From Eledone cirrhosa (Eukaryota): 64,000 nt of DNA. The DNA is taken from positions 40,176,001 through 40,240,000 of the forward strand of contig OZ024748.1 of the NCBI GenBank assembly GCA_964016885.1. Reading direction: 5' to 3'. How positions within the stretch are numbered: the stretch's first letter is position 1; each line of letters opens with the position of its first letter. The notes under the pieces are model-generated. The model saw only the letters and a program-made list of their open reading frames with translations. It did no database searches and had not been told where the DNA came from. Positions 26,617 to 64,000 of this stretch are shown in pieces. A program made the translations under genes and the position numbers.

Positions 26617-26880
26617 ATTAGAATTGGTGCTCTGAAATAGCGATGTATATATGAATGTATATATAGTATATTTGGCAATATACTGTATGCTTAATTAAAA
26701 GCATTTTGAAGACCTTGCGCCATTATTTTAAAGTAATGACTATGTCACTTCTTTTTTCAACAAACAAAAGAAGTAAGTGACATAGTCACTAATTTAAAAT
26801 AATAGTGCAAGGTCTTCAAAATGCTTTTAATTAAGCATACAGTATATTGCCAAATATACTATATATACATTCATATATAT
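26617..26880. mobile_element. Fold-back remnant of the ribozyme-repeat family (lacks the hammerhead)
   Basis: ~110-bp inverted arms; shares gctctgaaatagc and aaagcattttgaagacc with 47685-48390 and 61466-64000. Confidence 0.75.
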
Positions 26881-26883
26881 ATA

Positions 26884-42179: not shown

Positions 42180-42494
42180 CGAAACGGCTTGAGCTCAGCT
42201 GTCGGGGTCTTACTGGTTCCTATTACCCACTCTACTACCTCAAGTATTGAGTACTTTGGTGCGTTATGGTCCACCTGGTTCCTTACCACATTTCCTTCGT
42301 TATATATATATATATATATATAATGTACTAAAGTATATATATATATATATTATATATATATATATATATAATGTACTAAAATATATATATATATATATAT
42401 ATAATGTACTAAAGTATATATATATATATATATAATGTACTAAAGTATATATATATATATATAATGTACTAAAGTATATATATAATGTACTAAA

Positions 42495-42527
<33 letters not shown>

Positions 42528-42559
42528 GTACTAAAGTATATATATATAATGTACTAAAG

Positions 42560-42592
<33 letters not shown>

Positions 42593-42699
42593 GGGAAAAT
42601 GTATGACCCCGACGGCAGATTCAGAAAAGATTGTTTTGGTAAAAACAAGAGTAAGTAGGAGAATATATATAATATATTAAAGTGTATATATATATATAT

Positions 42700-45600
42700 C
42701 TAATATATATTTGTGAAATGGGTGGTGGTTGAAATTCAGATGCGCATGGTTAAATCGTAGTAGACGTGGTCAGACGGACATGAAAATTTACACACCTATG
42801 TAAAAAGTGCCAAGGAAGCAAATAAACGAGGTTTCAAATCTCTAACTTGAAAAATGTGGTCCCTAGGGTCACCAAACGGTCTATTTACTATCACGTTCGG
42901 TGAGTTATTTCCCCCTGTTCTAATACTTGGATGAGTTATTTACAATTTCATACAAATTTTTAAACTCATCAACATTCTTTCGCTGTTAACATACAGTACC
43001 AATAATTTGAAAAATATTATTGAAAGTTTATTATAAAGAAGCAGTTTCAGAAAAAAAAATAGAAATATGCACTTGGGGCTGGATGGCATACAATGAGAAG
43101 TGGAGCGACGTGAAAAGCGTTGTTTATTAACAGCGAAATAGCAATCATTTGAAAATGCAGATTAATAAACTGTTGCCTTCTACAGTAAGTTTCATTTTCA
43201 CAGTACCATTTTATGAAATCGATTCTGCAGTACGGTCACTGTTTTCCATCAAAAGAAATAAAACCCTTAAATTGCGAAGAAGGGACGCGTGTTTTTATTT
43301 TAATTCTAATACATGTTAACTACCACTAACAGTAAGTAGTATTTTTCAAATTGCATATCATCAACATTGCTATTTCGCTGTTAATAAACAACGCTTTTCA
43401 CGTCGCTCCACTTCTCATTGTACGCCGTCCAGCCCCAAGTGCATATTTCTATTATTTTTTCCTGAAACTGCTTCTTTATAATAAACTTTCAATAATATTT
43501 TTCAAATTATTAACTTAATAAAAAGTGGCCCCGGGTGCAACCGGGCTCAGCTGCTAGTATATATATGTTAAAGTATATCTAATCCGATTAGAGCAAACAT
43601 CACGGGCGCTCTATCTCAAAATTATTTTTGAAAAGCATTAGAAATGCGCAACCGGTAAAACTTAAAACCAAAACTGAATACTAACCAATACTATTACTAA
43701 TTTTTACTTATTCCTAATTAAACTATTTTTCACTGGGAACAATTTGTCAGCATTTTCTTTTCCGTTTACCAATATATATATATATATATATATATACAAA
43801 ACTGATGTCTATGTGTGTGTGTGTCCTCATTTTTGCAAAGTCTATACAAATCCAGATTTCTACTCCGATTGACTTCAAACTTGCATTTATATATTCCTTG
43901 CGGTCTAAAGATATTAACTGCAGCTTTTATTTTTCAATTTTTTGTTGATAAAGGGGCGTTAGGCGCCAGTTATCCATCTCCGTCGCATTCTTATAATATC
44001 TGTCTGTATGCCTGGCTGTCTGCATTACGACATTCTGACGAACATTGAGGACATATTATGTTCGCTATTTTCCGTTCATTGCCAGGGAACGTTTTCACGA
44101 ACCAAAGTATTGTCTTCCTGTTTTCCTTCGGTTGCAACGTTTTTAGAAATATTTACTTCTGCGTTCACAGATTGATGTTTTTAGTTTCAGAAAATCCCGT
44201 TAAGGGTGAAAGCAACGATTCTTTGCTTAAACTTTAATCTGTTATTTTAATCTATATATGTATATATATAAAACTGAGGAAGGATGTATGTGTGTATGTG
44301 TGTATGTGTGTGTGTGAAACCCGAGAAGTACCCAACCGATCTTTTTCAAACTTTACATGTGTATTACTTATATTTCAGCACATAAAAAATATTCAACTTT
44401 TTGATCCCCTAGGGCCCGCATTTGGTGAAAAACTGCGTTTTTTCCAGCTTTTTAGGGGTTTTTTGAGGCATTACGTCAGGCCGATTTTCTTGAAATTGTA
44501 ACTATGTATTAGTCAATCACTTCTTCATACTGTGAGCAAAGAAAATCCAACTTTTTTATGGCCTAGGGCCCACACTAGGTGAAAACCTTATTTTTTTCAG
44601 CTTTTTACGGCTTTTTTGAGGCATTACGTCTAGCCGATTTTCCCGAAATTTCAAGGCATATTATGCACATAAAAAAAATTCATTTTCTTGATCCCGTGAA
44701 AACCTGCCTTTTTCTTGCTTCATCGAAGAAAATCTTAGATTATCCCACCATCAGAGTATTCGGTTTATTTTCTTTAGATATTATCCAGGCATGCAGTTTT
44801 TCGACGATTAGGTCTGTTGGCAGCCCGCGTTCCAAAATACCTTATCCTGTGCAATGCCGGGTACCACTGCTAGTAATGTACTAAAGTATATCTATAATAT
44901 TATAAAGCTGAGTGTCGTGTGTATTATGTATGTATCATACACACCTCCCTATAGTTTCTTAGCTTTACTCTCTCCGTCGTTCTTCCCTCTCTCTATAATA
45001 GATTATTGCCCCTCTCTATAATTTAACTGCTTTGCTCTCTCTGTTGCTCTTCACTCTCAAATATTATAAAGCTGAGCGTCATCTCTCTCTCTCCCTCTTT
45101 TACTCTCTCCATCGCTCTTCCCTCTCTCTATAATAGATCATTCCCCCTCTCCATAATTTAACTGCTTTACTCTCTCCGTCACTCTTCACTCAAATATTAT
45201 AAAGCTGAGCGTCGTCTCTCTCTCTCTCCCTCTTTTACTCTCTCCGTTGCTCTTCCCTCTCTCTATAATAGATCATTCCCCCTCTATAATTTAACTGCTT
45301 TACTCTCTGTCGCTCTTCACTCTCAAATATTAAAAAGCTGAGCGTCTTCTCTCTCCCTCTTTCACCCTCTCTATAATTTAACTGCTTTACTCTCTGTCGC
45401 TCTTCACTCTCTATATGAGAACACTGTTTTAGTTTCCGTATCTCCCTTCAATATATACAAAGAGAGAGAGAGAAAGATTAGGAAAACTACACACACACAA
45501 CTACAGAGAGAGACAGAAAAACAGAGGGAGGACAAAAGAGAGAGATAGGCTGTTAGACAGAGAGAGATACAATTAAAGTGTTAGTTATTCAGAGAGAGAG

Positions 45601-45703
45601 AGAGTCGGAAGGACAATGTGACATGGGAGGGTGTGTGGTATCTTTGTAGTGGAGTGGTGGGGGCAGGTATACCTAGCTGGACACCAGCCGGACCGGCCAG
45701 TAG
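42700..45703 (+). mobile_element. Cluster of Helitron-like non-autonomous elements
   Basis: 3' ends with a GC-rich hairpin then CTAG|T at ~43557 (cccggg..ccggg..ctgctagt) and ~44873, and a similar end at ~45703; TC starts. Internal boundaries are approximate. Confidence 0.55.
43001..43511. repeat. ~145-bp near-perfect inverted repeat with ~220-bp spacer
   Basis: 43001-43145 is the reverse complement of 43366-43511. Confidence 0.85.
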
Positions 45704-45782
45704 TATATATATATAATGTACTAAAGTATATATATATATATATATATATATAGTGTACTAAATATATATATAATGTACTAAA

Positions 45783-45818
<36 letters not shown>

Positions 45819-45926
45819 TACTAAATATATATATATATAATGTACTAAAGTATATATATATATAATGCACTAAAGTATATATATATAATGTACTAAAGTA
45901 TATATATATATATATAATGTACTAAA

Positions 45927-45986
<60 letters not shown>

Positions 45987-46143
45987 TACTAAATATATAT
46001 ATATAATGTACTAAAGTATATATATATATAATGCACTAAAGTATATATATATATATAATGCACAAAAGTATATATATATATATATAATGTACTAAAGTAT
46101 ATATATATATATATAATGTACTGAAGTATATATATTTATATAT

Positions 46144-47433
46144 ATCATCATCATCATCATCATTTTACGTCCGCTTTTCTCTGCTTGCAAGGGTGGGATG
46201 GGTCTTATTCAGCACAGCATCTCTCCACTCGTCACGGTCCTTCGTCATCTCCACCGTGAGCTTCAATGATCTGATGTCTGTTCTCACCACCTCCGCCCAT
46301 GTTTTTCGTGGTCTACCTCTACCACGTCTTCCTTCAACTGGCATTTCCTGGCACTTCTTCACCCATCGGTCATCCTCCATGCGCATCACATGTCCATACC
46401 ACCTCAGTCTCCTCTCCCATACACTACATTCTATCCCTCTCAGACACAGTTTCTCTCTCAACACATTTATGCTGGCTCGCTCACGCACATTTACACTGCA
46501 CATCCAACGGAGCATGCTTGCCTCATTTCTCTCCAGCCGTCGCATATCCTCTGCAGTTGCTGCCCATGTCTCACTACCATGCAGCATCGCGCTCCTCACA
46601 CAGGATTCATACAGCCGACCTTTCGTACGCAGGGAGAAACCCTTCTTCGTCAACAGAGGAAGCAGCTCTATAAACTTCTTCCAACCCGTCCTTATTCTAG
46701 ATACTATGGCCTCGGAACACCCTCCTCCCATGCTAATCTGATCTATGTACCGGAAGCTATCCACCACTTCTATAGTGCCCTCCTGCATTTGAAAAACATG
46801 TCTATCAATGTGACTTCTACTGTCTAATTTCCCTGTACATCTACATTTCTTCCTACCTGTTAGTTTGCCTGCTATCCCGCTACATCTCTTGTGTACCCAG
46901 GATCTGCATTGTGTGCATTTTATAGAATTTATGCCAGTTCCTTTTCTGCATATCGAACATGGCCATTTCCCTGACGGAATCAGAGTTTTGTCCTCTTTTC
47001 TACTCATCAACACTTTTGTCTTAGCTAGGTTCACTCTCAGTCCTCTTGCTTCCAGCTGCTGTTTCCATAGCCAGAATTTATTCTCTAGCTCCTCTACTGA
47101 TTCTGCTATAAGAACCAGATCGTCAGCATAGAGATGTTCCCATGGACAGCCAGTCTTAAACTCCTCTGTTATGGCTTGGAGGACTATAATGAACAAGAGA
47201 GGGCTGAGGACCGAACCCTGATGTACTCCTACTTGTATCTGGAATTCCTCACTAAACTCCATTCCTACCCTGACTTTACTGAGAGTACCTCTGTACAAAG
47301 TTTGCACTGTCCTCACAAGCCATTCCTCAACACCTAGCTTCCTTAGGGACCACCAGATGACAGATCGGGGTACCCTATCAAAGGCCTTCTCTAGGTCAAC
47401 AAAGGCTAAGTATAGTGGCTTATTCTTCTCTAA
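46144..47433 (-). mobile_element. RTE subfamily B, 5'-truncated
   Basis: 383-aa ORF 46165-47316 with YADD; (ATC)n tail at 46144-46163. Confidence 0.93.
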
Positions 47434-47795
47434 GTATATATATATAATGTACTAAAGTATATATATATATATATAATGTACTAAAGTATATATATATATA
47501 TATATATAATGTACTAAACTATATATATATATAATGTACTAAAGTATATATATAATATACTAATGTATATATATATATAATGTACTAAAGTATATTTATA
47601 TATAATGTACTAAAGTATATATATATATATAATGTACTAAATATATTTATATATATAATGTACTAAAGTATATATATATATAATGTATTTTGCAATACAC
47701 TTTATGCTTAATTAAAAGCATTTTGAAGACCGTAAGCTATTGTTTTAAAGTAGTGACAAATTCACTCACTTTGATCTCAGCAAACAGGGGAGATA

Positions 47796-47839
47796 AGCCG
47801 ACATGACATGTTTCGCTTTTGTTGAAGCTTATCAAGGCC
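47796..47839 (-). ncRNA. Type I hammerhead ribozyme motif (inverted copy, U3:A8)
   Basis: Exact reverse complement of 48180-48223. Confidence 0.8.
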
Positions 47840-48179
47840 AACTAGCCCGCCTGTCTACTGAGATCAATGATGTTATATTCTTATAGAAATCTAGTAAATA
47901 ATCAGGAGCTGATTATGCAGAGCGGTTGTTGGTCAGGCAGAAATTAAAAATTAGAATTGGAGCTCTGAAATAGCAATATATATATGGATGTATATATAAT
48001 GTATTTTGCAATACACTTTATGCTTATACATCCATATATATATTGCTATTTCAGAGCTCCAATTCTAATTTTTAATTTCTGCCTGACCAACAACCGCTCT
48101 GCATAATCAGTTCCTGATTATTTACTAGATTTCTATAAGAATATAACATCATTGATCTCAGTAGACAGGCGGAGTAGTT

Positions 48180-48223
48180 GGCCTTGATAAGCTTCAACAA
48201 AAGCGAAACATGTCATGTCGGCT
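48180..48223 (+). ncRNA. Type I hammerhead ribozyme motif with U3:A8 core variant
   Basis: GGCC-TTGATAA-GCTT caacaa AAGC-GAAACA tgtca TGTC-GGCT, enclosed by an 18-bp helix ttgatctcagtagacagg/cctgtttgctgagatcaa. Confidence 0.8.
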
Positions 48224-48548
48224 TATCTCCCCTGTTTGCTGAGATCAAAGTGAGTGAATTTGTCACTACTTTAAAACAATAGCTTACGGTCTTCAAAATG
48301 CTTTTAATTAAGCATAAAGTGTATTGCAAAATACATTATATATACATCCATATATATATTGCTATTTCAGAGCTCCAATTCTAATTTTTAAAGTATATAT
48401 ATATATATATATATATATATAATGTACTAAAATATATTTATATATATAATGTACTAAAATATATTTATATATATAATGTACTAAAGTATATATATATATA
48501 TAATGTACTAAAGTATATATATATATATATATAATGTACTAAAGTATA

Positions 48549-49860
48549 CGAGGGGGGATCAAAAAGTTTGCGGAATTTTTCAGAAAATATTCTATTTTTC
48601 AAAAAATATGATTTGCCTTCAATTTATTTTTCTACAGAGTTGCCATCCAGGTCAATACACTTGACAAGGCGATGCTTCAACTTTCGTAAGCCGTCTCTAA
48701 AGAAAGTTGAAGGCTTTGTTCGAAGCCATGTGTTGGCAGTGTTTTTAGCTTCTTCAACACCACTAAAACGGGTTCCTTTTAGCATTTCTTTGAGTTTTGG
48801 AAAGAGGAAAAAGTCTGATGGGGCTAAATCTGGACTATAAGGTGGGTGAGGAAGCACTTCCCATCGAAATTCTCGAAGAACTTCTTTTGCAACCCACGCA
48901 GAATGCGCTGGTGCATTGTCATGGTGAAACAAGATCCCACCATGAAGTTTCCCTTTTCGTTTCTTGACTAATGCCTCTTTCAGCTTCCTTAAAACATGTG
49001 CATAGTAAGCTCCTGTCACAGTTCATTGACCTTCAAGATAATCTATTAGTATCACACCATCTGAATCCCAGAAAATGGTGGCCATCACTTTTTGATCCGA
49101 CTTTTGAGATTTGAACTTGATTGGCCCCGATGATCCACGTGGAAGCCACTGTTATGACTGCTGTTTGGATTCAGCATCATACTGGTAGATCCAGGTTTCA
49201 TCTCCGGTGATGATTCTGGTCAGGAAATGCTCTTCATCAACTTCAATTTTGTTTAATATCGTCAAAGACAGATCACTTCGAAGAATCAGCTGATCAGAGC
49301 GCAACGCTTTTGGGACCCATCGCGCTGAAAGCTTGCTTAGTCCTAAATTATCGTGCAGAATTGAATTTGCCGAACCATATGAAATGTCTAGGGACTTAGC
49401 TAACTGATTAACTGTTATTCTTCGATCTTCTTCAATTAAAGTCTGAGCAGCCTCAACGTTTTGGTCATTTTTTGATGTTCCTAGTCTTCCACTGCGATGG
49501 TCGTCTTCAAGGTCGTCTCTCCCTTGTTTGAATCGCTGAATCCACTTGTAGACAGCAGTTTTCTTTGGAGCAGTACTACTGTAAACTCTAACTAAAACCT
49601 CCATAATCTGTGTCCCATTCCATTTGAGTTTCACCAGAAACTTGATATTCGATCTTATCTCAAAATAACTATTTTCCATTGTTCCAAAAAGAGGTTTTTT
49701 AAAGTGTGTCAGTACTGTACAATAGTCCACACATGACTGACTGCAAGTGAGTAAAAGCAAGGTAAACACCCAGTGACAATGTTCTGACATGTTTAATATC
49801 GTTTTAATCTATTTTTTTCTTACTACAATAAAATTCCGCGAACTTTTTGATCCCCCCTCG
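48549..49860 (-). mobile_element. Full-length mariner (DD34D) transposon, 1312 bp, TA target duplication
   Basis: TIRs cgaggggggatcaaaaagtttgcggaattt / aaattccgcgaactttttgatcccccctcg, flanked by TA. Confidence 0.95.
48624..49679 (-). pseudogene. Mariner transposase, 352 codons, two in-frame stops (~49152, ~49025)
   Basis: WVPKAL, TGDETW, HHDNAPAH and YSPDLAPSDF motifs, all in one frame. Confidence 0.92.
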
Positions 49861-49891
<31 letters not shown>

Positions 49892-50641
49892 TACTAAAGT
49901 ATATATATATATAATGTACTAAAGTATATATAATGTACTAAAGTATATATATATATATATATAGTGTACTAAAGTATATATATATATATAATGTACTAAA
50001 GTATATATATATAATGTACTAAAGTATATATATATAATGTACTAAAGTATATATATATGTAATGTACTAAAGTATATATATATATGTAATGTACTAAAGT
50101 ATATATATATGTAATGTACTAAAGTATATCTATATATAATGTACTAAAGTATATATATATATATAATGTACTAAAGTATATATATATATATAATGTACTA
50201 AAGTATATATATATATATATAATGTACTAAAGTATATATATATATATATAATGTACTAAAGTATATATATATATATAATGTACTAAAGTATATATATATA
50301 TATAATGTACTAAAGTATATATATATATAATGTACTAAAGTATATATATATATAATGTACTAAAGTATATATATATATAATGTACTAAAGTATATATATA
50401 TATAATGTACTAAAGTATATATATATATATATAATGTACTAAAGTATATATATATATATATAATGTACTAAAGTATATATATATATATATAATGTACTAA
50501 AGTATATATATATATAATGTACTAAAGTATAAATATATATATAATGTACTAAAGTATAAATATATATAATGTACTAAAGTATAAATATATATATAATGTA
50601 CTAAAGTATATATATATATATATATATATAATGTACTAAAG

Positions 50642-50672
<31 letters not shown>

Positions 50673-51304
50673 TACTAAAGTATATATATATAAATAATGT
50701 ACTAAAGTATATATATAATGTACTAAAGTATATATATATATATAATGTACTAAAGTATATATATATAGTGTACTAAAGTATATGTATATATATATAATGT
50801 ACTAAAGTATATATATATAGTGTACTAAAGTATATGTATATATATATATAATGTACTAAAGTATATATATATAATGTACTAAAGTATAAATATTTATATA
50901 TAGTGTAATAAAGTATATATATAATGTACTAAAGTATATATATATAATGTACTAAAGTACATATATATAATGTACTAAAGTACATATATATAATGTACTA
51001 AAGTACATATATATAATGTACTAAAGTACATATATATATGTACTAAAGTACATATATATATGTACTAAAGTACATATATATAATGTACTAAAGTACATAT
51101 ATATAATGTACTAAAGTACATATATATAATGTACTAAAGTACATATATATATAATGTACTAAAGTACATATATATATGTACTAAAGTACATATATATACG
51201 TCGGGATTTAAACTCAGATCGTAAAGGGACGTAACTACGCTGGAAAGCATCTCTGACCCTCTACAAATACTGGCAATTCAAAATAATGTACTAAAGTATA
51301 TGTT

Positions 51305-51466
51305 TATAAATGTGGTTGGTGTTAGGAAGGGCATCCAGGCGTAGAAAACCTGCCAGATAGTCCTATATGAACGAGACACGGCCACCCAACCAACCTTGCT
51401 TCAAGTGGGACAACTCCCGTCTAACCCATGCTAGCATGGAAGATGGACATTAAACGAAGATGATGA
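51305..51466 (+). mobile_element. RTE-A 3' tail fragment
   Basis: Matches 14100-14260. Confidence 0.8.
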
Positions 51467-51559
51467 TATATATATATATATATATATAAAGAAAAAGGGA
51501 TGAAATCGAAAATGCAACTGAAGTCTTATTTTTTTAAAAATATATATATTTATTTGATT

Positions 51560-51594
51560 CCTTTACCGGTTTCGCAGTTCTGCTTTTCAAAAGG
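51560..51594 (-). ncRNA. 35-nt minimal hammerhead motif, U3:A8 variant
   Basis: Minus strand reads CCTT-TTGAAAA-GCA gaac TGC-GAAAC cg GTA-AAGG; stem III is the palindrome ACCGGT. Confidence 0.7.
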
Positions 51595-51711
51595 TGAGTT
51601 GAGATGGAGGGTCTGTGGTTTTTCTCACATCTTATATATATATATATATATATAATATATTAAAGTATATATATATATATATAATGTACTGAAGTATATA
51701 TATATATATAT

Positions 51712-52767
51712 ATCATCATCATCATTTTACATCCGCTTTTCCCTGCTTGCAAGGGTGGGATGGGTCTTATTCAGCACAGCATCTCTCCACTCGTCACGGT
51801 CCTTCGTCATCTCCACCGTGAGCTTCAATGATCTGATGTCTGTTCTCACCACCTCCGCCCATGTTTTTCGTGGTCTACCTCTACCACGTCTTCCTTCAAC
51901 TGGCATTTCCTGGCACTTCTTCACCCATCGGTCATCCTCCATGCGCATCACATGTCCATACCACCTCAGTCTCCTCTCCCGTACACTACATTCTATCCCT
52001 CTCAGACACAGTTTCTCTCTCAACACATTTATGCTGGCTCGCTCACGCACATTTACACTGCACATCCAGCGGAGCATGCTTGCCTCATTTCTCTCCAGCC
52101 GTCGCATATCCTCTGCAGTTGCTGCCCATGTCTCACTACCATGCAGCATCGCGCTCCTCACACGGTATTCATACAACCGACCTTTCGTACTCAGGGAGAA
52201 ACCCTTCTTCGTCAACAGAGGAAGCAGCTCTATAGACTTCTTCCAACCCGTCCTTATTCTAGATACCATGGCCTCGGAACACCCTCCTCCCATGCTAATC
52301 TGATCTATGTACCGGAAGCTATCCACCACTTCTATAGCGCCCTCCTGCATTTGAAAAACATGTCTATCAATGCGACTTCTACTGTCTAATTTCCCTGTAC
52401 ATCTACTGCATACATATTTCTTCCTACCTGTTAGTTTGCCTGCTCTCCCGCTACATCTCTTGTGTACCCAGGATCTGCATCGTGTGCATTTTATAGAATT
52501 TATGCCAGTTCCTTTTCTGCATATCGAACATGGCCATTTCCCTGACGGAATCAGGGTTTTGTCCTCTTTTCTACTCATCAACACTTTTGTCTTAGCTAGG
52601 TTCACTCTCAGTCCTCTTGCTTCCAGCTGCTGTTTCCATAGCCAGAATTTATTCTCTAGCTCCTCTACTGATTCTGCTATAAGAACCAGATCGTCAGCAT
52701 AGAGAAGTTCCCATGGACAGCCAGTCTTAAACTCCTCTGTTATGGCTTGGAGGACTATAATGAACAT
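51712..52767 (-). mobile_element. RTE subfamily B, 5'-truncated
   Basis: 346-aa ORF nearly identical to 46165-47316; (ATC)n tail. Confidence 0.93.
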
Positions 52768-54036
52768 TATATATATATATATATATTATATATAAATATA
52801 TAATGTACTAAAGTATATATATATATAATGTACTAAAGTATATATATATAATGTACTAATGTATATATATATACATATAATGTACTAATGTATATATATA
52901 TAATGTACTAAAGTATATATATATATATATATAATGTACTAATGTATATATATATATATATAATGTACTAATGTATATATATATATAATGTACTAATGTA
53001 TATATATATATAATGTACTTATATATATATATATATATAATGTACTTATATATATATATATATATAATGTACTTATATATATATATATATATACATATAA
53101 TGTACTAATGTATATATATATAATGTATAAAGTATATATATATACATATAATGTACTAAAGTATATATATATAATGTACTAAAGTATATATATATAATGT
53201 ACTAAAGTATATATATATAATGTACTAAAGTATATATATATATATAATGTACTAAAGTATATATATATATATAATGTACTAAAGTATATATATATATATA
53301 TAAAATGTACTAAAGTATATATATATAACGTACTAATGTATATATATATATATAATGTACTAAAGTATATATATATATATATATAATGTACTAAAGTATA
53401 TATATATATAATGTACTAAAGTATATATATATATAATGTACTAAAGTATATATATATATATAATGTACTAAAGTATATATATATACATATAATGTACTAA
53501 AGTATATATATATACATATAATGTACTAAAGTATATATATATACATATAATGTACTAATGTATATATATATAATGTACTAAAGTATATATATATACATAT
53601 AATGTACTAAAGTATATATATATACATATAATGTACTAATGTATATATATATAATGTACTAAAGTATATATATATATATATATATATATAATGTACTAAA
53701 GTATATATATATAATGTACTAAAGTATATATATATAATGTACTAAAGTATATATATATATATATAATGTACTAAAGTATATATATATATATAATGTACTA
53801 AAGTATATATATATATAATGTACTAAAGTATATATATATATATATAATGTACTAATGTATATATATATATAATGTACTAAAGTATATATATATACATATA
53901 ATGTACTAATGTATATATATATAATGTACTAAAGTATATATATATATATAATGTACTAAAGTATATATATATACATATAATGTACTAATGTATATATATA
54001 TAATGTATATATATATAATGTATATATATATAATGT

Positions 54037-57000
54037 ACTAGCATGGGTTAGACGGGTTGTCCTGTTGTGGGCAGTGTCTGGTCGGCTGACCATGCCTTGC
54101 TCATACAGGAACTGATTTGGCTTGATTTCTACAGCTGGATGCCCTTCCTAACACCAACCTCATTTACAGTGAGTGCTGGGTGATTTTTCGTAGCACCTAT
54201 ACGTCCACTTTACAGTGTGGGCGGGGTGCTTTTTTGCCGTGGCTCCTCCACGACCACCTTGCGGTGGGGGGTGTGGGGGCATATTGTCTATATGCTTCAG
54301 CTTGTACCCATGGGAGGTCGGGTACTCTGTATTACTGCGTGACGCCAGAAGTCACGGTCATGTGTCATTGCCTTTGAGAGGTGTAATTGGGTAAGGTCGG
54401 CTTTTATCACCTCATCCCAGGTCATCTTGGGTCTCCCCAATCCGCGGTTTCCATCAACTTCTAGTGCTCTGCACCTTTTTATGCAGCTGTCATCCTTCAT
54501 ACGCATCACATGTCCATACCAGCGCAACCGCCTCTCCTGCACACAGCATTTGATTCCTCTTATGCTCAGTCTCTCTCTCAATTCATTTATGCTTTGTCGT
54601 TCACGTATATTACTGTTACACATCCATCGGAGCATGCAGTCTTCGTTTCTCTCTAATCTACACAAGTCTTCCACCTTCAGCACCCAGGTCTCACTACCAT
54701 GCAACATTGCTGTTCGGATACACGCATCATACAGTCTGCCTTTCATTCTGAGGGAGAAGCCTTTTGCAGCTCGCAGTGGTAGTAGTTCCCTAAACTTCTT
54801 CCATCCCATTCTTACCCTAGTTATTGTACTTTCTGAACACCCACCTCCGCTGCTAATTCGGTCACCTAGGTAGCAGAAGCTGTCTACTGTTTCTACAGAG
54901 CCCTCCCAGAGATTGGTGGTACTTGTTTCCTGTGGCTGTTTGCTGCTTGCTGTCTCAGCACAGCTGCTGCATGTGAAGCCTACATTCTTAATTAAGCTTC
55001 CTGAGATCCAGCTATATCTCTTGTGTACCCATTGTTTGCATTTGGGGCAGAGAATGGAGTTCCTACCTACACCTTTCCTACATACTGAGCAAGGCCATTT
55101 CCCTGAGGGGATCTGGGTTCTGTTTTCTCGTCTACTTACAAGGACCTTAGTCTTTGTCATGTTGACTTTGAGACCCTTTCTTTCTAGTCCCTGCTTCCAA
55201 GATTCAGCTATGAGTGCGAGGTCATCAGCATACAGGAGTTCCCATGGGCATCCGGTCTTAAACTCCTCCGTTATTGCCTGCAGGACTATGATGAACAGGA
55301 GGGGGCTAAGAACAGAGCCCTGGTGGACCCCAACCTGTACGCTAAATTCCTCGCTATACTCATTGCTAATACTAACTTTGCTGACTGCTCCCCTATACAT
55401 GGCTTGTACCGCTTTCACAAGCCATTCACCTACTCCTAGTTTTCTAAGAGCCCACCAGATTACAGCACGTGGAACTCTGTCAAAGGCTTTCTCAAGGTCG
55501 ACAAATGCCAAGTAGAGTGGCTTACTTTTAGCTAGGTACTTTTCCTGTAATTGCCTCACAAGGAAGAGGGCATCAGTGGTGCCTCTTCCTGGTACAAACC
55601 CAAATTGCATCTCGTCTATTTCCACCCGGTCCCTAATCAACTGTGCTATAACTCTTTCTGTTACTTTCATGACTTGGTCCATCAACTTTATACCTCTATC
55701 TAGTGCATCGCCTTTACCTTTGTAGCAGTTGACAATGATGCTACTGCACCAATCTTTTGGTATGACACCTTCTAGTATTACCTGGTTAACAATACGTGTG
55801 GTTATAGTGTGACCTACAGACCCAGATGCCTTCAGCATCTCGGCAGCTATACCCGATGGACCGGTTGCCTTCCCCATCTTCATATCTTTGATTGCCTTAC
55901 TTACTACGTTGCTGCTGACTTGTACTGCTGGCCCCTCTATAGGGTCTACTTGGGGTAGGGTCTCTTCTTCCCATGCATTCTCCTCATTTAGTAATCTATC
56001 ATAATGACTCTTCCATGCATCTTTCTTCTCAGCACTTGTGAGGGCAAGCTCACCTTTATCATTCCAGATACACTTCTCTCCAATGATATCACAACTATCT
56101 CTGACACACTGCCTCGCAATCTTGAATACCTCCTGTTTCTGGTCCTCACGTTGCAAAACATGCTTGAATTTTCTATCCTCTGCTTCCCTCCTAGCTAAGT
56201 ATACTTGTCGCGTAGCTTCCCTCTTGGTCTCTATGTAATGTACCCTGCTCACCCCGTTCTTCCATTCTTTCCATGCCTGTCTCTTGGCCTTAACTGCTTC
56301 ATCTACCTTATTGTGCCACCACCAAGTCACTCTCCTCCTGCTTGAGGTCTTACTCCAGCCACAGACCTCATCCATCGCCTCTAGTAAATTATTTTTTAGG
56401 AACTCCCAGTTCTCTTCTACATTAAATGTCTCTATCTGTTCTTCTTTACTGTCGTAGGCGTTGAGTAAAATATCTTTAAATCTGTTACTGGTTGAGGGCA
56501 CTTTCAGCTTCCAGATCTTTCTTCTCTAGGTTGGCCTCTGTTTCCATGTTCGTCTAGTTCTGACCGTGAGGTCGCTGACAACTAAGCTATGTTGGGATGT
56601 ACATTCCTCACTAAGGAAGGCTTTTATGTTTACAACCGTCCATCTGTCACGTCCTCTGATGAGGATAAAATCTATCTGACTGGAGTGCTCCCCTGATCTA
56701 TAGGTGATCAGGTGGTTGTCGGGTTTTTTAAAGTTTGTGTTACATATCGACATGTCATTGGCGTCGCAGAATTCTAGAAGTCTGAATCCTTCATTTCTTG
56801 TGCCAACCCCATGGCCTCCATGTACTCTATTGAAGCCGTCGCAGTGTTTACCTACGTGTCCGTTAAAATCTCCTGCGATGATTAGGAAGTCATTGTCGTC
56901 TGTTAGAGCAGTAGTGTGCATTAGGGACTCGTAAAACCTATCCTTAAGTTCGTCTGGCAGCCCTGATTGGGGTGCGTAAGCTAATATTATTGTGGTAATT

Positions 57001-58020
57001 GTTTTATTCAGGACTAGTCTGAGTTAAATGATTCTTGCATTTACCCTGTACACTGAGATTACTTTATCTACCCACTTGTCAGCTAGTAGTATACCTACAC
57101 CACCCATCCCATCGTTATTTCCCACCCAGAAAAATTTGTAGCACCGACTTTTTCCTACCAGGACTCTGGCAGACTCTCCTCTCCATCTAGTCTCTTGCAC
57201 ACAGCATACATCAATTTCCTTTTGCTCTAGCATTTCTACGATTTCTCCTGCTCTTCCTTTCATTGAGCCTACATTGATGGTACCAACTCGGAGTTTTGGG
57301 CATTTGTCGACACTCGTAGGGAAGGGTCTCTGGGTTGGCGCTTCACATGAGTGCTTGATAGCTCGCAGATTCATATTTCATCTCTTGATTCAGAGTTGCT
57401 CAAATTTATTCTCAGCTCATCCATCCATAACGGTAGGAAAATTGAGGGCTAGAAGAACAGTGGTGGTGGGATAATGGCAGGGTGTGTTGGGAGGAGAGAG
57501 TTAGTTAGGTAGTAGTAGTAATAATAGCAGTAGCAGCAGTAGAAATGGCATGCTGAGGTTTGATTGGTCGAATAGGCTATGGTGGCGTGAGAGGGTGGGT
57601 GGGTGGCGTGAGAGGGTGGGTGGGTGGCGTGAGAGGGTGGGTGGGTGGCGTGAGAGGGTGGGTGGGTGGCGTGAGAGGGTGGGTGGGTGGCGTGAGAGGG
57701 TGGGTGGGTGGCGTGAGAGGGTGGGTGGGAGGAAATTGTGAGTGAGGCACTGAGGGTCACCGTCAAGACTAACAAACTTAAATAACCGAAAGATTAGAAT
57801 ACCGCGTGGTAAATATCCGAAATAATACAGCAAAAACAGCAATAATATTAATAATAATAACATCATAGGAGCTAAGATACCTTCGAAAATTTGTATGGAT
57901 GGGTGGCTGGAACGAATCCAAATCAACTCTAGTGAGTGAGGCACTGAGGGTCGCCGTCAAGGCTAACAAACTTAAATAACCGAAAGATTAGAATACCGCG
58001 TGGTAAATATCCGAAATAAT
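54037..58020 (-). mobile_element. RTE-clade LINE, subfamily C, near full length, frameshifted
   Basis: ORF pieces 57024-57374, 56526-56921 and 54297-56501 (APE + RT + PHD-like finger). 5' UTR has a 21-bp repeat (~7x, 57581-57730) and a 194-bp duplication (57738/57932). Confidence 0.92.
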
Positions 58021-58200
58021 AAATATATATATATATATATAATGTACTAAAGTATATATATATATATATATATAATGTACTAAAGTATATATATATATAT
58101 ATATAATGTACTAAAGTATATATATATATATAATGTACTAAAGTATATATATATATATAATGTACTAAAGTATATATATATATATATATAATGTACTAAA

Positions 58201-58239
<39 letters not shown>

Positions 58240-59944
58240 GTACTAAAGTATATATATATATATATATATAATGTACTAAAGTATATATATATATATATAT
58301 ATATAATGTACTAAAGTATATATATATATATATATATATAATGTACTAAAGTATATATATATATATATATATATAATGTACTAAAGTATATATATATATA
58401 TATATATATAATGTACTAAAGTATATATATATATATATATATATAATGTACTAAAGTATATATATATATATATATAAATAATGTACTAAAGTATATATAT
58501 ATATATATATAATGTACTAAAGTATATATATATATATATATAATGTACTAAAGTATATATATATATATATATATAATGTACTAAAGTATATATATATATA
58601 TATATATAATGTACTAAAGTATATATATATATATATATATAATGTACTAAAGAATATATATATATATATACAATGTACTAAAGTATATATATATATATAA
58701 TGTACTAAAGTATATATATATATATAATGTACTAAAGTATATATATATATATATATAATGTACTAAAGTATATATATATATATAATGTACTAAAGTATAT
58801 ATATATATATAATGTACTAAAGTATATATATATATATAATGTACTAAAGTATATATATATATATATATAATATATATAATGTACTAAAGTATATATATAT
58901 ATATATATAATGTACTAAAGTATATATATAATGTACTAAAGTATATATATAATGTACTAAAGTATATATATAATGTACTAAAGTATATATATATATAATG
59001 TACTAAAGTATATATATATATAATGTACTAAAGTATATATATATATATATAATGTACTAAAGTATATATATATATATATATAATGCACTAAAGTATATAT
59101 ATATATAATGTACTAAAGTATATATATATATAATGTACTAAAGTATATATATATATATATAATGTACTAAAGTATATATATATATATAATGTACTAAAGT
59201 ATATATATATAGTGTACTAAAGTATATATATATATATATATAATGTACTAAAGTATATATATATATATATATATAATGTACTAAAGTATATATATATATA
59301 TATATAATGTACTAAAGTATATATATATATATAATGTACTAAAGTATATATATATATATAATGCACTAAAGTATATATATATATAATGTACTAAAGTATA
59401 TATATATATATATAATGTACTAAAGTATATATATATATATATAATGTACTAAAGTATATATATATATAATGTACTAAAGTATATATATATATAATGTACT
59501 AAAGTATATATATATATATAATGCACTAAAGTATATATATATATAATGTACTAAAGTATATATATATAATGTACTAAAGCATATATATATATAATGTACT
59601 AAAGCATATATATATATAATGTACTAAAGTATATATATATATATAATGCACTAAAGTATATATATATATAATGTACTAAAGTATATATATATATAATGTA
59701 CTAAAGTATATATATATATAATGTACTAAAGTATATATATATATATAATGCACTAAAGTATATATATATATAATGTACTAAAGTATATATATATATATAT
59801 ATAATGTACTAAAGTATATATATATATAATGTACTAAAGTATATATATATATAATGTACTAAAGTATATATATATATAATGCACTAAAGTATATATATAT
59901 ATAATGTACTAAAGTATATATATATATATATATAATGTACTAAA

Positions 59945-59983
<39 letters not shown>

Positions 59984-61379
59984 GTACTAAAGTATATATA
60001 TATATATATATATATAATGTACTAAAGTATATATATATATATATATAATGTACTAAAGTATAATATATATATATATATAATGTACTAAAGTATATATATA
60101 TATATATATAATGTACTAAAGTATATATATATATATAATGTACTAAAGTATATATATATATATATATAATGTACTAAAGTATATATATATATATAATGCA
60201 CTAAAGTATATATATAATGTACTAAAGTATATATATATATAATGTACTAAAGTATATATATATATATAATGTACTAAAGTATATATATATAATGCACTAA
60301 AGTATATATATATAGTATAATGTATATATATAATGTATAAAGTATATATATATATATATATATAATGTACTAAAGTATATATATATATATATATATAATG
60401 TACTAAAGTATATATATATATATATATATAATGTACTAAAGTATATATATATATATATAATGTACTAAAGTATATATATATATATATAATGTACTAAAGT
60501 ATATATATATATATATAATGTACTAAAGTATATATATATAATGTACTAAAGTATATATATATAATGCACTAAAGTATATATATATATAATGTACTAAAGT
60601 ATATATATATATAATGTACTAAAGTATATATATATATAATGTACTAAAGTATATATATATATTATGTAACTATAAAGTATATATATATATATATAATGTA
60701 CTAAAGTATATATATATATATATAATGTACTAAAGTATATATATATATATAGTTACTAAAGTATATATATATATATATAATGTACTAAAGTATATATATA
60801 TATATAATGTACTAAAGTATATATATATATATAATGTACTAAAGTATATATATATAATAATGTACTAAAGTATATATATATATATATAATGCACTAAAGT
60901 ATATATATATATAATGTACTAAAGTATATATAATATATAATGTACTAAAGTATATATATATATAATGTACTAAAGTATATATATATATAATGTACTAAAG
61001 TATATATATATAATGTACTAAAGTATATATATAATGTACTAAAGTATATATATATATGTACTAAAGTATATATATATATATATATTATATATATATAATG
61101 TACTAAAGTATATATATATATATAATGTACTACTAAAGTAATATATATATATATATAATGTACTAAAGTATATATATATATATAATGTACTAAAGTATAT
61201 ATATATATATAATGCACTAAAGTATATATATATATAATGTACTAAAGTATATCTATATATAATGTACTAAAGTATATCTATATATAATGTACTAAAGTAT
61301 ATCTATATATAATGTACTAAAGTATATATATATATATATATAATGTACTAAAGTATATATATATATATAATGTACTAAA

Positions 61380-61414
<35 letters not shown>

Positions 61415-61465
61415 GTACTAAAGTATATATATATATATATAATGTACTAAAGTATATATATATAT

Positions 61466-64000
61466 ATTGGAATAAATGCTCTGAAATAGCGATATATATG
61501 TGAATATAGACATAGAATATTCGAAAATATTCTGTATGTTTATAATAAACATTTTGAAGACCTAATCGCTATAGAATAGAATACGTCACGTATTACAATT
61601 AGATTCTCGATAAAAGCAAGGGAAGTAATCTACGCGTTTCATTCTTGTTAGAAATCATCAGGACTACATATCCAGTGCTTTTATCGAGAATGACACAGCT
61701 AGAGACTTATAGAATACTTAGCTGTGTACAGGAACTGGTTTGAAAGAGCGGTTGCCGGTCCGGCAGAAATTAGAAATTGGAATAAATGCTCTGAAATAGC
61801 GATATATATGTGAATATAGACATAGAATATTCGAAAATATTCTGTATGTTTATAATAAACATTTTGAAGACCTAATCGCTATAGAATAGAATACGTCACG
61901 TATTACAATTAGATTCTCGATAAAAGCAAGGGAAGTAATCTACGCGTTTCATTCTTGTTAGAAATCATCAGGACTACATATCCAGTGCTTTTATCGAGAA
62001 TGACACAGCACTGGATATGTAGTCCTGATGATTTCTAACAAGAATGAAACGCGTAGATTACTTCCCTTGCTTTTATCGAGAATCTAATTGTAATACGTGA
62101 CGTATTCTATTCTATAGCGATTAGGTCTTCAAAATGTTTATTATAAACATACAGAATATTTTCGAATATTCTATGTCTATATTCACATATATATCGCTAT
62201 TTCAGAGCATTTATTCCAATTTCTAATTTCTGCCGGACCGGCAACCGCTCTTTCAAACCAGTTCCTGTACACAGCTAAGTATTCTATAAGTCTCTAGCTG
62301 TGTCATTCTCGATAAAAGCACTGGATATGTAGTCCTGATGATTTCTAACAAGAATGAAACGCGTAGATTACTTCCCTTGCTTTTATCGAGAATCTAATTG
62401 TAATACGTGACGTATTCTATTCTATAGCGATTAGGTCTTCAAAATGTTTATTATAAACATACAGAATATTTTCGAATATTCTATGTCTATATTCACATAT
62501 ATATCGCTATTTCAGAGCATTTATTCCAATTTCTAATTTCTGCCGGACCGGCAACCGCTCTTTCAAACCAGTTCCTGTACACAGCTAAGTATTCTATAAG
62601 TCTCTAGCTGTGTCATTCTCGATAAAAGCACTGGATATGTAGTCCTGATGATTTCTAACAAGAATGAAACGCGTAGATTACTTCCCTTGCTTTTATCGAG
62701 AATCTAATTGTAATACGTGACGTATTCTATTCTATAGCGATTAGGTCTTCAAAATGTTTATTATAAACATACAGAATATTTTCGAATATTCTATGTCTAT
62801 ATTCACATATATATCGCTATTTCAGAGCATTTATTCCAATTTCTAATTTCTGCCGGACCGGCAACCGCTCTTTCAAACCAGTTCCTGTACACAGCTAAGT
62901 ATTCTATAAGTCTCTAGCTGTGTCATTCTCGATAAAAGCACTGGATATGTAGTCCTGATGATTTCTAACAAGAATGAAACGCGTAGATTACTTCCCTTGC
63001 TTTTATCGAGAATCTAATTGTAATACGTGACGTATTCTATTCTATAGCGATTAGGTCTTCAAAATGTTTATTATAAACATACAGAATATTTTCGAATATT
63101 CTATGTCTATATTCACATATATATCGCTATTTCAGAGCATTTATTCCAATTTCTAATTTCTACCGGACCGGCAACCGCTCTTTCAAACCAGTTCCTGTAC
63201 ACAGCTAAGTATTCTATAAGTCTCTAGCTGTGTCATTCTCGATAAAAGCACTGGATATGTAGTCCTGATGATTTCTAACAAGAATGAAACGCGTAGATTA
63301 CTTCCCTTGCTTTTATCGAGAATCTAATTGTAATACGTGACGTATTCTATTCTATAGCGATTAGGTCTTCAAAATGTTTATTATAAACATACAGAATATT
63401 TTCGAATATTCTATGTCTATATTCACATATATATCGCTATTTCAGAGCATTTATTCCAATTTCTAATTTCTGCCGGACCGGCAACCGCTCTTTCAAACCA
63501 GTTCCTGTACACAGCTAAGTATTCTATAAGTCTCTAGCTGTGTCATTCTCGATAAAAGCACTGGATATGTAGTCCTGATGATTTCTAACAAGAATGAAAC
63601 GCGTAGATTACTTCCCTTGCTTTTATCGAGAATCTAATTGTAATACGTGACGTATTCTATTCTATAGCGATTAGGTCTTCAAAATGTTTATTATAAACAT
63701 ACAGAATATTTTCGAATATTCTATGTCTATATTCACATATATATCGCTATTTCAGAGCATTTATTCCAATTTCTAATTTCTGCCGGACCGGCAACCGCTC
63801 TTTCAAACCAGTTCCTGTACACAGCTAAGTATTCTATAAGTCTCTAGCTGTGTCATTCTCGATAAAAGCACTGGATATGTAGTCCTGATGATTTCTAACA
63901 AGAATGAAACGCGTAGATTACTTCCCTTGCTTTTATCGAGAATCTAATTGTAATACGTGACGTATTCTATTCTATAGCGATTAGGTCTTCAAAATGTTTA
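61466..64000. repeat. 310-bp tandem array with one hammerhead motif per unit; ~1.75 units inverted (61466-62009), then at least 6.4 units on + running off the window
   Basis: ctggatatgt recurs at 62011, 62321, 62631, 62941, 63251, 63561 and 63871. The only unit difference I noticed is G>A at 63162. Confidence 0.95.
62019..62061 (+). ncRNA. Minimal type I hammerhead ribozyme motif (first of 7 on +, every 310 bp; minus copies at 61625-61667 and 61935-61977)
   Basis: GTAGTC-CTGATGA-tTTCT aaca AGAAt-GAAAC gc GTA-GATTAC. Predicted cleavage after 62055; stem III is the palindrome ACGCGT. Confidence 0.88.

Follow-up and report, generated by a model that had tools for sequence, protein, structure and literature searches.

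A 64,000-nucleotide stretch of Eledone cirrhosa DNA (contig OZ024748.1, 40,176,001 to 40,240,000; hereafter the window) carries, at 47672-48391, two diverging copies of a 316-bp unit that are joined head to head within a TA-rich minisatellite. The two arms are 99% complementary across 323 nt and differ from each other at 3 internal positions. The minus arm measures ~355 nt and the plus arm ~365 nt, both longer than the 316-nt unit, and each contains one hammerhead motif. The features of the locus, in window positions, are as follows.

47435..47687, no strand: left flank, a (TA)n-rich minisatellite target of 25-29-bp repeats
47672..48026, minus strand: left arm, 1.1 units of the 316-bp putative retrozyme, 5'-truncated; its 3' end has no tail and blends into the TA-rich target
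47796..47839, minus strand: type I hammerhead motif of the minus arm (U3 47835, A8 47830, C17 47800; Hammerhead_HH9 E 2.1e-5, below gathering)
48025..48026, no strand: head-to-head junction, a 2-nt overlap (TA) joining the two 5'-truncated arms
48025..48391, plus strand: right arm, 1.15 units, terminating with a tail
48152..48248, plus strand: outer helix of 18 bp (48152-69 with 48231-48) that encloses the ribozyme motif, present in the minimum free energy (MFE) fold; two-sided changes in 9 of 12 tested pairs
48180..48223, plus strand: type I hammerhead motif of the plus arm (U3 48184, A8 48189; 470 exact genomic copies)
48208..48218, plus strand: stem III near-palindrome, a 10-bp self-duplex and predicted double-hammerhead contact
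48360..48391, plus strand: one-sided tail, 32 nt past the 3' end point of the other arm (compare PMC8557442, PMC11167929)
48394..48548, no strand: right flank, minisatellite as in the left flank

The first-pass annotation had treated 47685..48390 as a single diverged 316-bp member; its placement of the motif holds, whereas the interval is an inverted pair of units, and the tailed, inverted anatomy of the kind left by Penelope-like elements (PLEs) had gone undescribed. Three of the blocks that it reported as common to this repeat and a 310-bp unit further along the window (GCTATTTCAGAGC, CAACCGCTCT and TTCTATAAG) lie in the plus arm and align with that unit, and the block 'ttttgaagacc' at 47721 is the minus-arm copy of GGTCTTCAAAA. 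The arms consist of unit sequence alone: PLE proteins have no match within 47672-48391, and the reverse transcriptase (RT) and GIY-YIG open reading frame of an autonomous PLE is absent from the interval.

Each strand of the locus holds a single ribozyme motif with no same-strand dimer, and a read-through transcript of both arms is predicted to fold into a 323-bp hairpin in which the ribozymes pair with their own antisense copies (48184 with 47835). For these two reasons the locus is probably a dead-end copy that should not release unit-length RNA.

Several neighbouring repeats were recorded in the window. Many arrays of a 23-31-bp TA-rich minisatellite (TATATA...ATGTACTAAAG) occupy 42301-61467, and both retrozyme insertions of the stretch lie in or beside such arrays. 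From 48547, right after the minisatellite, a sequence beginning TACGAGGGGGGATCAAAAAGTT resembles a mariner-type transposon end and may be one. The 310-bp array with a C3:G8 core (61468-64000) is likewise head-to-head, with a tailed minus arm from 61468 to ~62008 followed by at least 6.4 plus units; its stem III reads ACGCGU and its stem II contains a U·U base pair. An older relative at 26617-26882, situated at the (ATG)n/(AT)n end of another repeat, consists of two short 3' fragments joined head to head; only one side is tailed, and neither arm has a ribozyme.

Hammerhead motif and predicted folding

In the plus arm, stem I pairs GGCC (48180-83) with GGCT (48220-23), the core UUGAUAA occupies 48184-90, and stem II pairs GCTT (48191-94) with AAGC (48201-04) around CAACAA; GAAA follows at 48205-08, and GUC ends at C17 (48219), the predicted cut site. 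The motif thus has the type I arrangement, i.e., the core N3 UGA N N8 A / GAAA / UH and three helices with stem I open, and at this locus positions 3 and 8 form a Watson-Crick U3:A8 pair. Stem I, stem II, the 18-bp outer helix and the core were all correctly read by the first-pass annotation, as judged by sequence and fold. Its description omitted stem III, the near-palindrome ACAUG-U-CAUGU, which by computation forms no hairpin by itself and has a 10-bp self-duplex at -10.5 kcal/mol.

At gathering thresholds, Rfam gave no match anywhere in the window. At the E-value threshold, Hammerhead_HH9 (RF02275), which shares the type I topology, was the best ribozyme model for both arms, with 29.9 and 29.0 bits (E 2e-5 and 4e-5); the gathering score of 52 was not reached by either arm, and the unit is not a member of that family. 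The 316-bp arms nevertheless score 29-30 bits against 19 bits for the canonical 310-bp unit. MicroRNA-model matches obtained at the same E-value threshold were rejected as products of the inverted junction.

The active fold of the monomer lies 5.3-5.5 kcal/mol above the MFE. For a natural tandem dimer from elsewhere in the genome (L140), the double-hammerhead fold was calculated at -142.0 kcal/mol, two monomers at -136.2 and the inactive MFE at -147.0, which places the double hammerhead 5.8 kcal/mol under two monomers and 5.0 above the MFE. Based on these energies, dimer cleavage is predicted to be favoured over monomer cleavage, yet not to dominate.

Copy number and states of the 3:8 pair

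The exact 44-nt motif occurs 470 times in the 3.0-Gb assembly and its reversed control 0 times, so that a chance origin is excluded. To cover the four Y3/R8 states, an anchored pattern was used in which the family block TTCTATAAG is placed 38-50 nt upstream of the core. Genome-wide, this pattern matched 19,616 C3:G8, 4,548 U3:A8, 79 C3:A8 and 73 U3:G8 sites, with reversed controls of 0, 0, 3 and 0 in the same order; the copies are related, and these counts are not independent events. The 310-bp unit's family is the source of most of the first 100 of the 19,616 C3:G8 matches. The possibility raised in the first-pass annotation, that most copies might lack the paired state, is not borne out: 24,164 of the 24,316 anchored matches are paired, and 152 are mismatched, including a few chance matches. 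Mismatched rows are mostly scattered single copies, as decay after insertion would give. About 19% of the family's anchored copies have U3:A8, and strict C3/G8 searches would miss this variant, as had been anticipated.

A narrower pattern, built on stem II, returned 12 copies with a residue other than U at position 3 (4 C, 4 A and 4 G, with A8 in all) and 5 copies with a residue other than A at position 8, none of them C3:G8. A C3:G8 version of the stem II of the 316-bp subfamily was looked for and not found. Among the first 100 C3:G8 rows, 12 show variation at the free position 7, and these include an 8-copy array.

Two arrays were observed elsewhere in the genome. A candidate source array of the 316-bp unit, at least 18 kb long (C2:207687137-207705259; L008-L011, L021 and L022), alternates 316- and 304-bp units and has periodic 195-bp interruptions. 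On contig C1, close to its end (C1:441858202-442047150), a hammerhead-like motif of the C3:G8 type recurs every 48 bp.

Covariation of the helices

Covariation was examined in 40 subfamily representatives, for which only rows with a paired 3:8 were selected. Among 954 cells (24 pairs in the 40 representatives), 93.7% are standard pairs, in comparison to 36-49% in controls with slid partners. Two-sided changes were detected in 18 of the 24 pairs, and all helices covary. The 3:8 line comprises 26 U:A and 14 C:G and is perfect by construction, since rows were chosen for pairing. Stem II occurs as GCUU/AAGC, GCAU/AUGC, GCAC/GUGC and GUAC/GUAC, and the self-complementarity of stem III is kept across ACAUGUCAUGU, ACAAGGCCUUGU, ACAGAGCUCUGU, ACAGGGCCCUGU and ACAGACUGU. 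The eight fixed core positions besides 3, 7 and 8 are invariant in the 40 representatives, seven of them being imposed by the search pattern. U stands at position 16.1 in 39 of the 40. At position 17, the 74 rows with a called site have C, A or U (G was excluded in the calling, and 5 rows had no site).

Covariation, the 3:8 counts and the trees described below agree with the earlier claim that C3U with G8A is a compensatory swap and that structure is conserved across the family. The further claim, that both structure and catalysis are under selection, stands for structure; for catalysis, the U3·G8 lineage at 4 loci and the dispensability in vitro of a PLE hammerhead (PMC11167929) leave selection on this trait unestablished.

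Repeated swaps and a U3·G8 lineage

Trees were built from the 215 nt that follow the anchor, with positions 3 and 8 masked; 155 distinct units were thinned to 101, and the loci were hand-picked for diversity, mainly from contig C1. After three chimeric or truncated rows were taken out and the window unit was added, the tree of 99 rows required 3 changes between paired states. U3:A8 subfamilies form a ladder, nested among C3:G8 subfamilies, with the window unit at its tip; a second, older U3:A8 group is placed elsewhere in the same tree. A 56-row tree, from which mismatched rows, 3 long branches and 19 near-duplicates were also removed, rejected a single origin of U3:A8 as one clade (p-AU 1e-7). 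With the region 3' of the ribozyme alone, 2 changes were required and one U3:A8 clade was rejected at 3e-6. The grouping of U3:A8 with the 310-bp family as one clade was also rejected with the 56 rows. A single clade of the older U3:A8 rows was not rejected (p-AU 0.13), and for this reason the supported number of swaps is at least two and not three. The trees built therefore imply at least two independent swaps of the 3:8 pair, which recombination between subfamilies could mimic.

In one small subfamily, 7 of 9 copies are U3·G8; these occupy 4 of 5 loci, on contigs C1, C2, C4 and C26 and with differing flanks. These loci are listed below.

L151, C1:47998801
L152, C2:83744041-83745494
L153, C4:295997265
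L191, C26:23082459

In the 99-row tree this subfamily is placed inside the U3:A8 ladder. In its insertion on C2, U·G units are mixed with U:A units, and two variants of stem II occur, across both arms. It may be that the U·G units were carried along as passengers of a mixed multimer, or that the wobble is tolerated. The presence of this U3·G8 lineage at 4 loci shows that copying does not strictly depend on a Watson-Crick 3:8 pair. Both steps of the swap are transitions towards A/U, which makes AT-biased mutation with compensatory drift a plausible driver.

Anatomy of insertions across the genome

Thousands of dispersed and tandem copies are present in the genome, with 316-bp tandem arrays at many loci. 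The 30 loci that best match the window unit, a selection by similarity and not a random sample, represent 19 distinct insertions. Of the 19, 17 are head-to-head and one has a single orientation; the remaining one is a long array with its ends out of view. At all 15 insertions with both 3' ends resolved, exactly one arm has a tail: the untailed arm ends in the unit's own TA run, and the tailed arm goes on for ~24-35 nt, ending near CCAATTCTAAT and mostly followed by (TA)n. The 5' truncation points vary, and at most loci the arms meet with overlaps of 0-19 nt. The features of PLE insertions, i.e., an inverted 5'-truncated arm, a one-sided tail of 30-40 nt and a microsatellite target, are thus seen as inversion in 17 of 19 and as tailing in 15 of 15. 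That nearly identical copies lie on many contigs, their 3' ends fixed and their 5' truncation variable, indicates dispersal by retrotransposition.

At many unlinked loci, and in both orientations, each of the two arms, followed from its 3' end, comprises a full unit and continues directly into the next, without any upstream ORF. This unit-to-unit continuation requires a multimeric or circular non-coding template. The unit-to-unit joint was present in contigs of 3 of 4 sequencing runs, whose types are not on record and which are silent on expression or circles.

Penelope-like elements and the search for a partner

An inverted 5'-truncated copy, a one-sided tail of 30-40 bp and a bias towards microsatellites are features of PLEs (Craig et al. 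2021, PMC8557442). The Poseidon PLE protein has been reported to cut and extend both strands of AT-rich DNA, with reverse transcription starting internally at two sites, which define the tail, and PLE (PAc) insertion in vitro proceeded unimpaired with hammerhead mutants (Frangieh et al. 2024, PMC11167929). PLEs with RT and GIY-YIG are present in the E. cirrhosa genome, and their insertions are inverted, tailed and located in (TA)n. The tail of one PLE family ends in TTCTAAT, which is common to the tail of the retrozyme unit. Among 50 GIY-YIG loci (30 and 19 loci and one neighbouring stretch), with 150 of 10,596 candidates scored, none had a terminal repeat with homology to the unit. Two instances of unit-like sequence next to PLEs were rejected as PLE parts: in L052 it is a separate insertion beyond the (TA)n end of the PLE, and in L045 it lies between two unrelated PLE fragments.

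Other hammerheads were recorded in the genome. Two PLE families of autonomous type (L171, L172, L176, L180 and L182; L187 and L188) carry minimal U3:A8 hammerhead motifs in their terminal repeats, with cores UUGAAAA or UUGAUAA and stem III ACCGGU; in L171, a 938-codon RT and GIY-YIG frame lies between two such repeats. Another, unrelated U3:A8 family with stem III ACGUACGU (L031:4902, L032 and L054) precedes a (TA)n or (ATC)n end by ~70 nt. In yet another family of hammerhead repeats, with C3:G8 (L173, L176:185, L180:7145 and L186:5266), a stem II like that of the 310-bp unit is combined with a long stem III.

Discussion

We consider it quite probable that the head-to-head insertion of this 316-bp non-coding U3:A8 repeat is a non-autonomous retrozyme, likely copied into (TA)n by a PLE RT-endonuclease, since inversion together with a one-sided tail of ~30 nt, mostly in (TA)n, is a PLE signature. 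Tandem source arrays would be transcribed, and adjacent ribozymes would pair via the palindromic stem III and cut after C17, releasing unit-length RNA that is probably circular. The PLE protein would nick both (TA)n strands, and reverse transcription would begin at two internal sites ~30 nt apart, one per target strand. Copying would run past one unit, and the two cDNAs would be joined at short overlaps. Selection on the 3:8 pair would then act on the source RNAs and not on the inserted copies.

The same tail and inversion are those of PLEs themselves (PMC8557442), and the units might instead be severed pLTRs of an as yet unfound autonomous PLE, inserted with 5' truncation and then amplified locally in tandem, without a retrozyme RNA cycle. 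Such a route has been proposed for Xenopus retrozymes (10.64898/2026.07.22.740005), and the scored fraction of GIY-YIG candidates is small enough to accommodate it; we nonetheless regard it as unlikely, given that arms pass through a full unit into the next at many unlinked loci without an upstream ORF and that pLTR homology is absent from the 50 PLE loci. The hammerhead fold might also serve as a structural signal for PLE binding or priming and not for cleavage, with the 3:8 pair drifting among C:G, U:A and a tolerated U·G. This would fit the mobile U3·G8 lineage at 4 loci, the dispensability of cleavage for PAc insertion in vitro (PMC11167929), the truncated insertions without a ribozyme (26617-26882) and the difference between the active fold and the MFE. 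The constancy of the core positions, seven of the eight of which the search pattern required, and the residues called at 16.1 and 17 argue against it, and the U·G copies may be passengers, one array having U·G mixed with U:A units; we give this explanation a low probability. An ordinary satellite amplified at the DNA level, its inversion being a replication or assembly artefact in AT-rich repeats, would account for the location in a TA minisatellite and for the long tandem arrays. It is largely refuted, and highly improbable, in view of 3' ends that are fixed and asymmetric in all 15 unlinked insertions, the 3 internal differences between the arms and compensatory changes across helices.

On its testable features, the putative retrozyme can be assigned to the non-LTR retrozymes of metazoans (Cervera and De la Pena 2020, PMC7229834; Li et al. 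2026, 10.64898/2026.07.22.740005), with cleavage and circular RNA being predicted. The elements described there are non-coding and low in GC, with units of ~300 bp that contain one type I hammerhead each; they occur both dispersed and in tandem, number thousands per genome and co-occur with PLEs. The E. cirrhosa family differs in its U3:A8 core in ~19% of anchored copies, in the lack of pLTR homology among 50 PLE loci and in that circular RNA is inferred. Li et al. argued the link between retrozymes and PLEs from co-occurrence and pLTR homology and reported cleavage in vitro for 1 of 9 Xenopus retrozyme dimers, the other 8 remaining uncut. Searches by term in these two papers, and searches of openly accessible literature, did not bring up an inverted (TA)n anatomy with a one-sided tail for retrozymes.

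With the EN+ PLE clades (PMC8557442, PMC11167929), the insertions share partial tandems, an inverted 5'-truncated copy, a one-sided tail of ~30 nt, AT-rich targets and a hammerhead near the 3' end. The unit differs in having no RT or GIY-YIG ORF and a short repeating template, and in its ribozyme the outer helix is long and the palindromic stem III longer than theirs.

The first-pass annotation had implied that the U3:A8 core was novel, which is not the case. Natural U3/A8 covariation in hammerheads active in vitro was described by Perreault et al. in 2011 (PMC3088659), and ~1,300 U3-A8 PLE hammerheads in Schistosoma, missed by a first C3-G8 descriptor, were reported in 2014 (PMC4209133). Covariation from C3-G8 to U3-A8, missed by C3-G8 descriptors, is common to those variants, including the minimal hammerheads of the Schistosoma Cercyon PLEs, and to the present family. 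Here, however, the retrozyme that carries the variant has an extended stem I, and a single traceable family includes both states, at least two swaps between them and a small U3·G8 lineage. The core variant that was flagged is therefore already known; the PLE footprint and the repetition of the swap add modestly to it.

For the integration of animal retrozymes, the links to PLEs in the papers cited here are co-occurrence and terminal-repeat homology. One-sided tailing and inversion in all 15 resolved insertions point to PLE-type priming and name two RT start sites. Descriptors fixed on C3 and G8 would lose ~19% of the anchored copies of this family. The family has natural subfamilies with C:G, U:A or U·G in related backgrounds, and these offer a direct test of whether cleavage matters for spread. 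A wider proposal, that these retrozymes bear a PLE footprint, with two-site internal priming on circular or multimeric RNA, together with a ladder of swaps that passes via a mobile U3·G8 wobble, is possible, and we hold it tentatively, leaning slightly against it. If it is true, ribozyme competence, which is dispensable for PLE insertion in vitro, would be needed in vivo for the amplification of lineages.
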